Positions 18,622-26,753 of a stretch of 64,000 bases of DNA are shown here, one piece after another. Source of the DNA: Candidatus Sericytochromatia bacterium (GTDB taxonomy: Bacteria; Cyanobacteriota; Sericytochromatia; UBA7694; JACMQJ01); the NCBI GenBank assembly GCA_026004035.1, contig BPII01000001.1, forward strand, positions 312 to 64,311, given 5' to 3'. A program made the translations under genes and the position numbers. Below the pieces are notes generated by a model, which did not search any database, was not told where the DNA came from, and saw nothing but the letters and a program-made list of their open reading frames with translations. Position 1 is the stretch's first letter. The number at the start of each line of letters is the position of its first letter.

Positions 18622-18694
18622 GGGTTATTAGCTCAGTTGGTAGAGCAGCTGACTCTTAATCAGCGGGTCGAAGGTTCGAATCCTTTATAACCCA
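18622..18694 (+). tRNA. tRNA-Lys (anticodon CUU)
   Basis: 73-nt cloverleaf folded by hand: acceptor GGGTTAT/ATAACCC, anticodon stem GCTGA/TCAGC with loop CT-CTT-AA, T-loop TTCGAAT. CCA is not encoded. Confidence 0.9.
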
Positions 18695-18726
18695 TATATA
18701 TTTTTATTATATTATTGAGAATAATA

Positions 18727-19827
18727 ATGTCTGAAAATAATATTCAAGAAGATGTTTATGATGATATTGAATCTTTATTTGATGATTTAGATAATATTAT
18801 AAATAACGATGAAAATAATACTTCTAATGAACTAATTGAAAGTTTAGAAAATATTATAGAAGGAAAAGAAGAACCAAAAGTAGATTTTGATAGTGAAACT
18901 CAAAATTTGCTTGATGAATTGTCAGAATTTTTAGATGAACAAGAAACTGATTTAGAACAAGAAAGCTTGGAAGATGAAGAAATACCAAATCTTGATGAAA
19001 TGGCTAATGATGATTACTTTGAAGATGAACCATTACAAAGTGAAGACATTGAAACTGAAGAAACTAGAAAATTAAGAGAAGAAGCTGCCAAAGTTGCACT
19101 TGGATTAATGAATTATTGTGAATTTCATGTTATAAGTTTAGAAAACGAACTTGTAATTTTGGGTGATGCTTTTAATGAATTAATAGAGGAGACAAGAAAA
19201 TTAGATGACAAAATATCAAAATTAAGTGAAAAAATAAATAATGCTAAAGTTGAAGGTGCTAAACAATTAATGGATTTCATTCATGAAGAAATAAAATTAA
19301 TATCTGATAATTTAGAAGGTGCTATAAAATCAAGTGATCCTGGGGATTTAGAAATACTTTATGAAAATATAGAAATCTTAAAAGAAAATAAAAATGTAAT
19401 AGAAAATCAAATAAAAGGTTTAAAAGAAATAGGAGCAAATACTGACAAGTTAGAAAAGGATGTCCAAATATTAGAAAGTTCTATAGAAAAATTACAGAAA
19501 GCAATAGCTTCAAATGAAGTTTTTTCGGTTTCTATGAAATTTAATAATGAAATAAATCAAACAATATTTCAAATAAAAGAAGCTCAAGTTGCTGAAGATA
19601 TAGAAGATTTAAAAATTATAAATGAAAATTTAGATGTATTAATGGATAATAGAAATAATTTAGAAGAACAAATATGGGAATTATATAATAAAGGTTATGA
19701 TATAGAAGGACTTAAGCAACAATTAGAAGTTTTAAATATAAATTTAGAACAATTAAGTAGAACAATAGATGAAGCTACTTATAATATAAATATTATGATG
19801 AATAAAGAAAAAAAAAATAAATTTTAA
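18727..19827 (+). CDS. Acidic coiled-coil protein with an internal repeat of about 60 residues (hypothetical)
   Basis: ORF track (a TTG at 18715 is possible; the ATG at 18727 is preferred). The first 110 aa are D/E-rich and the rest is heptad-like. DLEILYENIEILKENKNVIENQIKGLKE repeats as DIEDLKIINENLDVLMDNRNNLEEQIWELYN. Confidence 0.55.
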   Translation: MSENNIQEDVYDDIESLFDDLDNIINNDENNTSNELIESLENIIEGKEEPKVDFDSETQNLLDELSEFLDEQETDLEQESLEDEEIPNLDEMANDDYFEDEPLQSEDIETEETRKLREEAAKVALGLMNYCEFHVISLENELVILGDAFNELIEETRKLDDKISKLSEKINNAKVEGAKQLMDFIHEEIKLISDNLEGAIKSSDPGDLEILYENIEILKENKNVIENQIKGLKEIGANTDKLEKDVQILESSIEKLQKAIASNEVFSVSMKFNNEINQTIFQIKEAQVAEDIEDLKIINENLDVLMDNRNNLEEQIWELYNKGYDIEGLKQQLEVLNINLEQLSRTIDEATYNINIMMNKEKKNKF

Positions 19828-20204
19828 TTTTCAGGATATTTTATTATATCAATTTTAGTTACAATTCCATCTTTTATAATAATTTCAGCTATTGTATCTC
19901 TAATTTTATTAAAATGAGAATTAACCCCTTCTATTTTAACACAAGCTTCTAAAAATAAATTGCCCATTATACCACTTGTAAGAAAAATTTTTTTAAAAAC
20001 TTCTGTTGTTTTATTCACAAGAGAATTAGGAATATTAAATTTTTCTTGATAGTTCTGATCAACTATTCTTTGTAGAATTTCTTTTGTAAATTCTTCTGCT
20101 GAATCATCTTTAAAAGAATTAAAAAGTTCTGTTCTTATATCATTAAAGTATTTCGGACTATTTATAGCTTTAATCCTTGCCAAACCATAAAGTTCAATAG
20201 CCAT
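19824..20204 (-). CDS. Hypothetical 126-aa protein, last gene of the minus-strand ORFan operon
   Basis: ORF track. Its start ATG (20202-20204) abuts the upstream gene's stop codon, sharing one base (ATTA on the plus strand). Its stop overlaps the convergent gene by 4 nt. Confidence 0.5.
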   Translation of the reverse strand: MAIELYGLARIKAINSPKYFNDIRTELFNSFKDDSAEEFTKEILQRIVDQNYQEKFNIPNSLVNKTTEVFKKIFLTSGIMGNLFLEACVKIEGVNSHFNKIRDTIAEIIIKDGIVTKIDIIKYPEN

Positions 20205-24448: not shown

Positions 24449-24460
24449 TTTATATAAATT

Positions 24461-25747
24461 ATGAGTAACGAATTGTATGATCAATTAATTGGTGTTAATT
24501 TTCCTTGTGTTGAATATTTGGAAGATAATTATAAAGAACATTATGAGTTATTAAAAGAAGCAGATGAATTCTCAGCAGCAGCAGTTTTATATCCCGATGA
24601 AAAAAATGAACTTTTAGCTAATAGCTTGCATAGATATCAGTTAATATTAGATAAAGCATCTAAAATATTAAAATTAGAAACTGATTTCTTATTAAAAAAG
24701 AAAATTTGTTTTAATTTTTATACTGATATAGCTAACCTTTTTGGACTTGGAACTCAAGCATATACTACAGAAACAGAAACTCCTTATATAGGAGTAAGTG
24801 AATTAAGCTTACAAAATGTATATCTTTTACAATTAATACTATTACATGAAATGCAACATGCTACAGACTTTGTTTATTTCAATGGATTTGATATGGGAGT
24901 AGCAGAAAGGGAATTAAGGGCAAGACTTACTATATGTCATTCTTTAAATGAATTACAAAAGCAATTTAATAAGTTATACAAAAATGCTTATATAGATCAA
25001 GCATATTGGTTTGTAATATTATTCTCATCACCTAATATAAGTGATGAGTTAAAGTATAAATACTATGAATTGCTAGAAAAACCAGCTAAAGATATTTTAG
25101 AAAGTGATGATGGAGTTGTATTTTCACCATTAATTTTAAGAGTGTTTGGAATGGAATTAAAAAGAGAAGGAGTAAATTTAAAAGCAAATACTAGTTATTC
25201 TATAACTAATAGAAATGGCTTACTAATAATGGAAGAAAAAGAATTAAAAATTCAAGAAGAAATACAAGAAGAAGATACAATAATTTCTGATACTGAAACT
25301 TATGATGATAAATTATTATCTGTTAAGCTATCAAGAATGACAGGGGAAAAAATATCCGATGAAAATCAACCATTAACATTAGTTAAAAATAAATTAATAG
25401 AATGGCATACTTATAAAGATGAATTAAAAAATATGAAAAAAAATGCAAACATAATAATAACAAGGAATGCTGAATCTCTTTCTAATATTTCAACTGTTGA
25501 AAATACTAATTTATCAGTTCCGAAAATAATAAAAGTCGAAAAACAATTTATAAAAATGGAAAATGATTTTGAAAAATTAAGAAATATAAATATTCCTAAT
25601 TCAACTTATAAACCTGAAGATTTTTCTAATGATGACTCACCAATAATTATTTTAAATAACGCTAATAGAAAAAAAGTTATAGAAGAAGATAATGAAGCAC
25701 AAAATTTTGTTAATAATTTATCAGATTTTTTCAAAGGTAAAAAATAA
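24461..25747 (+). CDS. Hypothetical protein with a zincin-type HExxH motif (putative metallopeptidase)
   Basis: LILLHEMQHATDFVYFNGFDMGVAERE: HEMQH with a Glu about 20 residues downstream (gluzincin-like spacing). Starts 12 nt after the upstream stop. Confidence 0.5.
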   Translation: MSNELYDQLIGVNFPCVEYLEDNYKEHYELLKEADEFSAAAVLYPDEKNELLANSLHRYQLILDKASKILKLETDFLLKKKICFNFYTDIANLFGLGTQAYTTETETPYIGVSELSLQNVYLLQLILLHEMQHATDFVYFNGFDMGVAERELRARLTICHSLNELQKQFNKLYKNAYIDQAYWFVILFSSPNISDELKYKYYELLEKPAKDILESDDGVVFSPLILRVFGMELKREGVNLKANTSYSITNRNGLLIMEEKELKIQEEIQEEDTIISDTETYDDKLLSVKLSRMTGEKISDENQPLTLVKNKLIEWHTYKDELKNMKKNANIIITRNAESLSNISTVENTNLSVPKIIKVEKQFIKMENDFEKLRNINIPNSTYKPEDFSNDDSPIIILNNANRKKVIEEDNEAQNFVNNLSDFFKGKK

Positions 25748-26667
25748 TGAATAATATAAAAAAAAATTATAGTAACTATAATTTAGATTCTGATAATTAT
25801 TTAGAAGATATAAAAAATTATCCCAAAGATTCTTATGTAAAGAACAATACAAATTCTAGCATAGGTAAATTAGATAAATATAGCAAAGAAAAAGAAAATT
25901 TTAATAATGAAAAATCAAAAATAATATTAAAAGAAAGCAATATTGATAAAACACTAGATGATTTAATACCTTCACAAATTGGAGATGCAATAGATAATGT
26001 TTTTTCTTCTGTAGATAATTTACTAACAAAAGCTGGAAAACTAATGTTTGGCCATATGAAAAATAAAAAAGTAAATTCTATTCCTAAAAAAAATAATATT
26101 GTTGTAAATAATCCAGTTAAAACAGTTTCTTCAAGAAATATAAATACTAATACTAATAATCAATTAAAAGTTATTACAGAAGCAAACACAAATAATAAAT
26201 CAGAAAATAATCAAAAATTAGAAAAAACTGAACAAAAACAAGAAATAAAAAAATCACCTCCTATAACTAGAACAACAAGCATATCAGAGTTAGATTTACC
26301 TTTGGATATTTTATCTGATTCTGATTTAGTAAAATATTTCGATCAAATGAAATTATACGATAAGAAAATAGAAGGTGGTTTATGCTCATTAACTTTTAGT
26401 GAAGCAGAAGAGATATTAAAAAAAGGAAAATGGGGCAAATTATTTACAATAAAATATGAACAATTGAAAATAAATACTATGATAGCTGGTTCTGATGCAC
26501 CCCTTAAAAGATTTAATGGAATGTTACCTGTTTATAAAGCATTAGCTAGAAAATTTAAAAATACTGAAGAGTTAAAGAAAGCTATTGAAAGAGATATTGA
26601 AACTTATCTTAGAACAGGAGAAGGTAGTAAAGACTTTCATAAATTTACTTATACTTTAAAAAAATGA
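25747..26667 (+). CDS. Hypothetical protein: Asn-rich N-terminal half and a compact C-terminal domain
   Basis: ORF track. Start overlaps the upstream stop (TAATG). The stop abuts the tRNA-Leu 3' end. Confidence 0.5.
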   Translation: MNNIKKNYSNYNLDSDNYLEDIKNYPKDSYVKNNTNSSIGKLDKYSKEKENFNNEKSKIILKESNIDKTLDDLIPSQIGDAIDNVFSSVDNLLTKAGKLMFGHMKNKKVNSIPKKNNIVVNNPVKTVSSRNINTNTNNQLKVITEANTNNKSENNQKLEKTEQKQEIKKSPPITRTTSISELDLPLDILSDSDLVKYFDQMKLYDKKIEGGLCSLTFSEAEEILKKGKWGKLFTIKYEQLKINTMIAGSDAPLKRFNGMLPVYKALARKFKNTEELKKAIERDIETYLRTGEGSKDFHKFTYTLKK

Positions 26668-26753
26668 TGCTCGGAGCGAGACTTGAACTCGCACGGGATT
26701 TGTGTCCCGCAGGATTTTAAGTCCTGTGCGTCTGCCGATTCCGCCACCCGAGC
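26668..26753 (-). tRNA. tRNA-Leu (anticodon UAA), type II with a long variable arm
   Basis: 86-nt cloverleaf on the reverse complement: acceptor GCTCGGG/TCCGAGC, anticodon stem CAGGA/TCCTG with loop CT-TAA-AA, long variable arm, T-loop TTCAAGT. Confidence 0.9.

Follow-up and report, generated by a model that had tools for sequence, protein, structure and literature searches.

We analysed a block of seven genes, named here P1 to P7, that occupies 8 kb between two tRNA genes in a contig of a hot-spring metagenome-assembled genome (MAG) of a Candidatus Sericytochromatia bacterium (contig BPII01000001.1, assembly GCA_026004035.1); the whole stretch of 64,000 nucleotides under study is called the window. 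A sequence-only reading of this DNA had described the block as operon-like and had proposed it as one undescribed system. Our results favour another view: the block is likely to be vertically inherited chromosome, not an island, in which two independent orphan operons restricted to the Sericytochromatia lie together with a singleton gene, P1, as chance neighbours. Module A consists of P4, P3 and P2, and module B of P5, P6 and P7. The tight sub-operons stand, but the seven genes are not a unit, the two modules being never adjacent elsewhere; such doubt as is left on this composite reading concerns mainly whether the modules cooperate. The block is laid out as follows, gene coordinates being those of the open reading frame (ORF) list.

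18621-18695, forward strand: tRNA-Lys(CUU) (ARAGORN; Rfam RF00005, 74 bits)
18727-19827, forward strand: P1, 366 aa
19824-20204, reverse strand: P2, 126 aa, last gene of module A
20204-21112, reverse strand: P3, 302 aa
21158-22492, reverse strand: P4, 444 aa, first gene of module A
22493-22732: AT-rich spacer of 240 bp between the divergent P4 and P5 (from the sequence)
22733-24448, forward strand: P5, 571 aa, first gene of module B
24461-25747, forward strand: P6, 428 aa
25747-26667, forward strand: P7, 306 aa
26668-26753, reverse strand: tRNA-Leu(UAA) (ARAGORN; Rfam, 54.8 bits)

The two tRNAs, whose 3' ends both face into the block, the seven ORFs and their junctions had been read correctly from the sequence, as ARAGORN, Rfam and the ORF list agree. 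P1 and P2 converge, their ends overlapping by 4 nt; the overlap is 1 nt at P3/P2 and at P6/P7, and gaps of 45 nt and 12 nt separate P4 from P3 and P5 from P6, respectively. NCBI annotates each of the seven products (GIW21014-GIW21020) as 'hypothetical protein'.

Gene order was compared in a sample of about 45 loci (L001-L045), several of them short or redundant. As a set of seven the genes are not syntenic in any other of these loci, but the two sub-operons are. A P3-like gene followed directly by a P2-like gene was found in 14 other loci, in both sub-clades, and P2-like ORFs (126-204 aa) always lie directly downstream of a P3-like gene. The complete order of P4-like, P3-like and P2-like genes recurs in six distinct contexts (L001, L004, L006, L007, L008 and L012). 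The P4/P3 duplication is restricted to the low-GC clade of the window, and a single P3/P4-type copy of about 415-475 aa is carried by the broader clade (L003, L016-L027). In this single-copy clade (L016-L025), a HEAT_2/HEAT_PBS protein of about 449 aa (Pfam, 3e-60) is the conserved third gene after the P3-like and P2-like genes (e.g. L024:11290-12639), a position without counterpart in the window.

Module B recurs too but is sometimes split. The full P5-P6-P7 trio was found in L011, L033/34, L035, L037/38 and L043 (the last at 37 % P5 identity), adjacent P5 and P6 in L030-32 and L041, adjacent P6 and P7 without P5 in L028 and L029, and P5 alone in L009 and L010/L044. In L040 and L042, no P6 match occurs within 0.6-2.2 kb downstream of P5. 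Where P7 homologues were found (34-64 % identity), they follow P6, i.e. in L011, L028, L029, L033/34, L035, L037/38 and L043. In the closest relative with data past P6, the 348 nt examined (L031:5082-5429) hold no P7 match and a minus-strand gene is called there, so that P7 apparently lies elsewhere in that genome.

In the other Sericytochromatia loci examined, modules A and B never lie side by side. None of these loci has a P4-like gene ahead of a P5-like one, and the juxtaposition of P4 and P5 across the spacer belongs to this genome only. In GCA_046328015.1, assembled as one contig of 3.55 Mb, module A lies at about 0.28 Mb, P6-P7 at about 1.66 Mb and P5 at about 3.29 Mb. In the closest relative with usable flanks (86 % identity for P5, 81 % for P6), a transaldolase gene is found upstream of P5, at the place of P4. 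The proposal of one undescribed seven-gene system delimited by the tRNAs, perhaps an acquired island encoding a membrane-targeting effector or toxin or an organelle module, draws on the tight, divergent packing between inward-pointing tRNAs, on seven products that are all unassignable and on a peptide motif common to P1 and P5; set against a gene order seen in no other locus, modules that lie megabases apart in a relative and the transaldolase in the closest one, we regard it as very improbable. The block also lacks any signal peptide or secretion gene, and its families are class-wide and vertically inherited. As to the effector, toxin and organelle guesses in themselves, the data speak neither for nor against them.

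Evidence of mobility was looked for in several ways, and none was obtained. No integrase, recombinase, phage or defence protein was detected among P1-P7 with Pfam, NCBIfam, PHROGs or PADLOC (the last scanned at E<=0.01). Queries of 16-25 nt from both tRNAs, with up to 4 mismatches allowed, revealed no duplicated tRNA 3' end in the window, the sole tRNA-like match outside the two genes being a D-arm similarity to tRNA-Val at 33.1 kb, and a repeat search found no direct repeats flanking the block. Library scans and repeat searches thus agree with the earlier statement that no integrase, phage gene or duplicated tRNA 3' end was visible and that mobility was undemonstrated; the partial 3' direct repeats suggested there as a check are missing from the window. 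The block families are absent from the IMG/VR viral contigs scanned, plasmid collections not having been searched. Block genes have 23-31 % GC, against a mean of 24.4 % for the window, with no compositional step, and the highest values belong to the most constrained genes and are comparable to that of FtsZ (31 %). The flanks encode FtsZ, CysZ, a urocanase-like protein, a GT2-TPR glycosyltransferase, RimO and CysRS.

Neither tRNA-Lys nor tRNA-Leu flanks these genes in any other locus that carries them; the few tRNA genes that lie near block homologues there are for Ser, Met, Val and Ala. Because the modules are unlinked elsewhere and island signatures are absent, the bounding of the 8-kb block by tRNAs is a positional coincidence, and the seven-gene neighbourhood is specific to this genome. 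Both are ordinary chromosomal tRNA genes, and tRNA-Lys is the left 'boundary' by position only. The '8-kb island' is thus a false lead, to be counted neither as a mobile element nor as a seven-gene system.

The families themselves are class-wide. Among 1.84 billion representative proteins, an exhaustive profile search returned only 30 members of the P3/P4 family, and homologues of named source come from Sericytochromatia, Blackallbacteria or unclassified Cyanobacteriota MAGs, the exception for P3 being one 2-kb contig labelled Pedobacter. P3/P4, P2, P5, P6 and P7 are at least five families that are confined to the Sericytochromatia and present across its sub-lineages. One of these sub-lineages, with 24-28 % GC, includes the window together with L001, L007, L009, L011, L028 and L030, other members of the class reaching 50-65 %; its low GC is not a by-product of extreme genome reduction, because the sub-lineage also includes the 3.55-Mb single contig of GCA_046328015.1.

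That the genes are real and constrained had been argued from composition, and codon-level comparisons with the nearest relatives bear this out. The ratio of non-synonymous to synonymous divergence (dN/dS) is 0.12 for P5 (0.093/0.77), 0.14 for P6 (0.12/0.87) and about 0.13 for P3 (0.12/0.91); for P4, P2 and P7 such comparisons are near saturation, their domains being nonetheless conserved. Loci with these families span 24-65 % GC. Over loci of 24-63 % GC, P3 keeps 58-82 % identity, and between the window and loci of the single-copy clade (47-63 % GC) it keeps 58-67 %. This conservation is above that of the sole calibrator, a T2SSF-like membrane protein with 55 % and 43 % identity in genome pairs in which P3 has 74 % and 67 %. 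The compositional argument itself, more Ala, Gly, Ser and Thr and fewer Asn and Ile than in filler ORFs, applies to P3 (30 % of the four small residues) and P5 (27 %), both close to FtsZ (30 %), and fails for P1, P2, P6 and P7. P2-P7 are real genes under strong purifying selection. It is hardly credible that the ORFs are spurious frames of an AT-rich genome, although such genomes do give long chance ORFs: for P2-P7 there are dozens of homologues that keep their length and motifs over 24-65 % GC, dN/dS as determined for P3, P5 and P6 is well below 1, and confident AlphaFold cores were obtained. The idea is conceivable for P1 only, which has no homologue; within the block, the antisense frame at 22272-22529 is clearly spurious.

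None of the proteins could be assigned to a known family, and the statement that the genes were unassignable is upheld, also after profile searches and, for P3 and P6, AlphaFold models and Foldseek. P1-P7 give nothing above cut-off in Pfam, NCBIfam, PHROGs or PADLOC, sequence-profile searches of the PDB with five families returned compositional matches only, hhalign among the block families uncovered no hidden relationship, and no mention of these proteins or of the locus tags of this MAG was found in the literature searched. Because they lie outside every described family tested, the block families are new at the protein-family level.

Module A consists of two paralogous proteins, predicted alpha-solenoids with basic disordered N-terminal arms, and a small partner. 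The duplicated helical domain family noticed in the sequence is the P3/P4 pair, whose paralogy is established by BLASTP (33 % identity over 286 aa, E=6e-63). P3 is the most conserved gene of the block (63 homologue clusters, 54-96 % identity); its short, basic, disordered N-terminus is followed by an all-alpha solenoid domain of about 240 aa, for which AlphaFold gives a pLDDT of about 90 over residues 80-270, with 10 helices. P4 is a divergent paralogue with a charged, disordered N-terminus of about 190 aa. In both proteins, the N-termini are variable, charged and of low confidence, and end in a conserved IKGSxVLDGxSQDxFxP motif (alignment A1). Long disordered N-termini had been ascribed to several of the block proteins; this holds for P4, but the disorder of P6 is C-terminal.

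In a Foldseek comparison with the PDB, all matches of the P3 model were generic solenoids or helical repeats designed de novo, and none had an E below 1e-3 (best 2e-3); for the three closest superpositions, the TM-score is 0.47-0.49 when taken over query length and 0.58-0.72 over target length. No HEAT, ARM or TPR profile matches P3 or P4 above the Pfam or NCBIfam cut-off, and a PDB profile search gave no relevant match. As modelled, P3 is an alpha-solenoid without a specific natural relative. Its domain carries many invariant polar residues, including SPHDDDPK and GRxEEE, which suggests a specific site and not a generic repeat. Matches of the P3 profile to the BMC domain (E=0.12) were judged to be noise, and Foldseek matches to isoprenoid synthases and translin were rejected (TM <= 0.2), the DDxxD/NSE motifs being absent on inspection. 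The P2 family is little conserved in sequence, with a mean column identity of 29 %; scanning of all alignment members with Pfam and a PDB profile search gave no match, and weak matches to LPD14 and trigger factor were judged to be noise.

Module B would bring together a membrane-associated hub (P5), an HExxH putative zinc hydrolase (P6) and a third conserved protein (P7). P5 has 64 homologue clusters (37-87 % identity) and a conserved length. Its N-terminal region is acidic, with a DDIDD motif (alignment A3), and leads to a nearly invariant globular core (aa ~130-280) with the motifs TPLGHxxHP and VGFxHE, in which His and Glu are invariant. A helical segment that is hydrophobic or amphipathic follows at aa ~340-460. 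The description of P5 as a polytopic membrane protein with a basic PK-rich tail is right as to the cationic, Pro-rich tail but insecure as to 'polytopic': in a Kyte-Doolittle analysis with a 19-residue window, two segments reach >= 1.6 in the clade of the window and none does in 4 of 25 homologues. Matches of P5 to the PDB at E<0.01 are limited to designed coiled-coil or amphipathic helical barrels, over the amphipathic segment, and no alignment member matches Pfam.

The tail of P5 varies in sequence and is fixed in composition: in each of the 25 homologues, the 95 residues that precede the terminus carry a net charge of +11 to +21 and contain about 11 prolines. The terminus itself reads LGYFED(E/Q)(P/A)F in 23 of the 25; one homologue is truncated after LGYFEDE and one has LGFFEDRPIKKP. 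L563, G564, F566, E567 and D568 do not vary in the alignment, and conservation is 90 % or more at Y565 and F571. The core of this peptide recurs in P1, as listed here.

19015-19032, forward strand: YFEDEP in P1 (aa 97-102), in an acidic disordered region, the same as the core of the P5 C-terminal peptide
24419-24445, forward strand: C-terminal peptide LGYFEDEPF of P5 (alignment A3)

P1 had been recognised as an acidic coiled-coil gene, and rightly so: 26 % of its residues are Asp or Glu, its net charge is -62 (-41 within residues 1-115) and its C-terminal two-thirds are coiled-coil-like. An alternative TTG start lies at 18715. No relative was found by tblastn in L001-L045 or in one metagenome scan, the protein forms a singleton cluster (GIW21014.1), and its library matches are sub-threshold and of coiled-coil type. 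At the DNA level, the resemblance to P5 is a 21-nt repeat (D10) of 90 % identity, with one copy within P1 (19014-19034) and the other at the end of the P5 gene (24424-24444). A scan for [YFW]F[ED]D[EQD] over 1456 ORFs (257,710 residues; the window and 29 loci) found the motif in six, namely four P5-family C-termini, P1 and one unrelated folded protein. When the other six block proteins were shuffled with composition preserved, any 6-mer of LGYFEDEPF appeared in 0.015 % of 200,000 shuffles (p≈1.5e-4). P1 and the P5 tail may thus address the same putative binding site, the evidence being real but unconfirmed.

P6 has 53 homologue clusters (36-89 % identity). The HExxH motif reported from the sequence is present at aa 129-133 (nt 24845-24859) as H-E-x-Q-H, with H129, E130, Q132 and H133 invariant in 35 homologues (alignment A2). 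D136, E149, R150, E151, R153 and R155 are also invariant, as is an upstream block that reads FNFY..FGxGTQAYTTE..G(V/I)SE. AlphaFold models residues 1-262 with a pLDDT of about 90 (mostly helical) and residues 265-428 below 50; conserved short motifs are held in this disordered C-terminal half. Around the motif, the model places a strand, a strand, a helix and the HExxH helix.

Membership of P6 in a known zincin family was assessed against SprT. The reference alignment was built from seven proteins verified as PF10263, namely yggI/sprT of E. coli and six proteins from phages. Foldseek against the PDB gave a best E of 1.3, with no zincin among the matches; against BFVD, only weak local matches were obtained, two of them to small SprT-like phage proteins, over 75-79 columns (E 0.6-1.6, probability 0.44-0.77). 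Sub-threshold SprT-like Pfam matches (E=0.07) occur in 2 of 35 P6 homologues and not in P6 itself. The hhalign comparison is collinear, HExxH falling on HExxH, with a probability of about 1 % (E=0.056). Because of this hhalign probability, P6 was rejected as an SprT-like (PF10263) member. On motif evidence only it is a putative metal-dependent (zinc) hydrolase, and a member of no demonstrable zincin family.

These data bear on a rival account that overlaps our preferred explanation, in which module B would carry out regulated proteolysis: P6 would be an active SprT/WLM-type minimal zincin cleaving P5, P7 or another substrate at the membrane, and the Lys/Pro tail of P5 would attach to a polyanion, for example DNA or anionic lipid. 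We find this possible but doubtful. H129, E130 and H133 are invariant, conserved D136, E149 and E151 are candidate third ligands, and the strand-strand-helix-HExxH model, the collinear hhalign and the weak Pfam and BFVD hints of SprT-like proteins speak for it, yet the probability in the same hhalign comparison, the lack of a PDB zincin in Foldseek and Pfam and NCBIfam scores below cut-off speak against it. The conserved charge of the P5 tail is in keeping with polyanion binding, but basic Pro-rich linkers also serve as plain spacers.

In P7, the last gene of module B, a conserved helix motif of the N-terminal part, LDDLIPxxIGxAIDNVF, is followed by a variable low-complexity linker and a C-terminal domain of about 130 aa (alignment A5). 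This domain is strongly conserved (TRTTxISxLDLP...YFDQMKLY...GGLC...FHKFxY). Neither the alignment members in Pfam nor a PDB profile search gave a match.

Returning to the reading of two independent operons and a singleton, we tentatively propose that the proteins form cytoplasmic or membrane-associated complexes joined by docking of peptides to domains. Docking is made probable by the fact that six conserved proteins pair a folded domain with disordered segments bearing invariant short motifs; the mechanism in its entirety is put forward with considerable reserve. The hydrophobic helices of P5 would hold it at the membrane, and its flexible polycationic tail would offer LGYFED(E/Q)xF for docking to a receptor domain. 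A metal-dependent hydrolytic activity would come from P6. P1, a fast-evolving and very acidic coiled-coil protein, would compete with or mimic the P5 tail through YFEDEP in its polyanionic arm.

It may be asked whether A, B and P1, while separate operons, encode a single Sericytochromatia-specific scaffold and hydrolase machine anchored in the membrane, the window showing partners that are rarely brought together. We hold this to be rather unlikely. The P3, P5 and P6 families co-occur in both large single-contig genomes sampled (GCA_046328015.1 and ERZ21878443 contig_1), and MAG locus-tag prefixes are shared (AABZ74 by P3 and P6, H7338 by P3 and P5), but such co-occurrence is also expected of any class-wide core genes. 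The families have a common design of folded domains and disordered arms with invariant motifs, though no detectable mutual homology. P3 and P4 are predicted alpha-solenoids, and extended peptides are typical ligands of this fold class; P1 bears the terminal peptide of P5. Against this, module A is not linked to module B in any of the other genomes examined. A stronger version, in which P2-P7 with P1 as a lineage-specific regulator would be a single unseen, class-defining, membrane-anchored machine of new-fold proteins wired by short peptides, appears to us less probable still. Its parts would be an alpha-solenoid pair, a hub with a polycationic tail and an atypical HExxH hydrolase. If true, such a machine would match the core proteins of cell division in conservation, and neither photosynthetic cyanobacteria nor any other bacteria would have it.

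Several points weigh against the explanation that we prefer. Modules A and B co-occur in every sufficiently complete genome, and both their divergent arrangement here and the motif shared by P1 and P5 would fit cooperating units. The synteny data come from about 45 loci, many short or redundant, which are a sample and not a full census. As to the mechanism, its structural basis is the predicted models of P3 and P6 alone, membrane association of P5 is read from hydropathy alone and is weak in several homologues, YFEDEP in P1 is seen in one sequence only, with no P1 homologue for comparison, and the HExxH of P6 could be non-catalytic because its fold has no significant zincin match.

The spacer between P4 and P5 had been proposed as a divergent control region with the candidate promoter given here.

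22646-22651: TTGAAT, upstream of P5 (from the sequence)
22668-22676: TGtTACAAT, upstream of P5 (from the sequence)

The string is present (TTGAAT, 19 nt, then TACAAT with TG ahead of it), but promoter-like sites in this AT-rich stretch are no commoner than in shuffles (51 observed against 58 +/- 8). A 22-nt inverted repeat, 91 % complementary, pairs 22289-22310 in the 5' part of the P4 coding sequence with 22653-22674 in the candidate -10 region of P5; it could be a chance product of AT-rich DNA. The antisense 85-aa ORF over the P4 start (22272-22529, forward strand) is low-complexity and almost certainly spurious. At the right end, a sigma-70 consensus on the reverse strand (26768-26795; TTGACA, 16 nt, TATAAT, 12/12) lies directly upstream of tRNA-Leu(UAA), is the sole full-consensus promoter site in an 8.4-kb scan and is likely to be the promoter of that gene. 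The stop codon of P7 ends at 26667 and adjoins, with zero spacer, the convergent tRNA-Leu, whose 3' end is at 26668; no terminator-like structure was found between them.

Genes beside the module A homologues were also recorded. A protein of about 170 aa, glycine-zipper/C19orf12-like at sub-threshold level, is encoded divergently upstream of the trio in five loci, at the positions given here.

Glycine-zipper neighbour: L004:5275-5784, L006:7733-8239, L008:7580-8107, L012:7796-8287, L027:8405-8713

Neither this protein nor the large unknowns that likewise recur next to the trio are encoded in the 64-kb window. Division or cell-wall genes lie near the P3 trio in L006 (YggT/ProC), L008 (DUF881/DUF1290) and L003 (MurJ/MurI); a link with cell division was dropped, such neighbours being anecdotal, inconsistent across loci and perhaps due to chance. 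A T2SSF-family gene occurs 1-3 kb from the P3 trio in L001 (14223-15158) and L023 (12623-13483) and 35 kb away in the window (61930-62862, forward strand); given this distance, the association was dropped as probably coincidental.

Within the window, FtsZ is encoded about 6 kb upstream of the block (11911-13014, forward strand; Pfam Tubulin 2e-51 and FtsZ_C). A 600-aa ORF (14651-16453, forward strand) without a Pfam match resembles FtsZ and P3 in composition (31 % Ala, Gly, Ser and Thr; 31.6 % GC) and may be another conserved orphan; no homologue was seen among the fetched loci. Just left of tRNA-Lys, an extremely Asn/Ile/Lys-rich protein of 468 aa (17143-18549, reverse strand) has as its single match the Rossmann-like domain of urocanase (Pfam PF01175, 1e-39), and looks like an atypical or degenerate urocanase-like gene.

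Sericytochromatia are an uncultured, non-photosynthetic sister lineage that frames the acquisition of photosynthesis and respiration by Cyanobacteria, and to our knowledge almost nothing is known of their cell biology. The block families can serve as class markers and as candidates for new Pfam families, and they offer entry points to a possible new metallohydrolase and a possible peptide-docking hub.

Among known systems, the block recalls tRNA-linked genomic islands in being a run of unassignable genes with flanking tRNA 3' ends that face it. Such islands, unlike the block, have an integrase or recombinase, a direct repeat of the tRNA 3' end and a compositional break; no presence/absence polymorphism was seen either, and the cargo here is class-wide, vertically inherited and found elsewhere in relatives without these tRNAs. 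The modelled P3 core shares the architecture of about 10 stacked helices with HEAT/ARM-like solenoids and with DHR4 (PDB 5cwb); it differs from HEAT, ARM and TPR solenoids in having no Pfam match and no natural structural relative below E=1e-3. With SprT-like zincins, the P6 model has in common a helix-borne HExxH after two short strands, then a helix with invariant acidic residues. It departs from them by a helical N-terminal extension of about 90 residues, Gln at the fourth motif position, a disordered C-terminal half of 165 residues and the lack of the third histidine and zinc ribbon of SprT.

The acidic tip of SSB and the C-terminal peptide of FtsZ are docking peptides on disordered linkers, and P5 would by analogy combine a flexible linker with a conserved docking-type peptide at its extreme C-terminus. 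P5 has no homology to either protein; its peptide is acidic-aromatic with a terminal Phe, and its linker, conserved in composition and variable in sequence, is strongly cationic and follows a hydrophobic segment. Finally, conserved lineage-specific hypothetical proteins are common in general, and the nearest parallel to the families described here is with the lineage-specific 'conserved signature proteins'. None of the block families had been described or named before; what they share with that category is that they occur in a single class only, where they span the sub-lineages and are strongly conserved.

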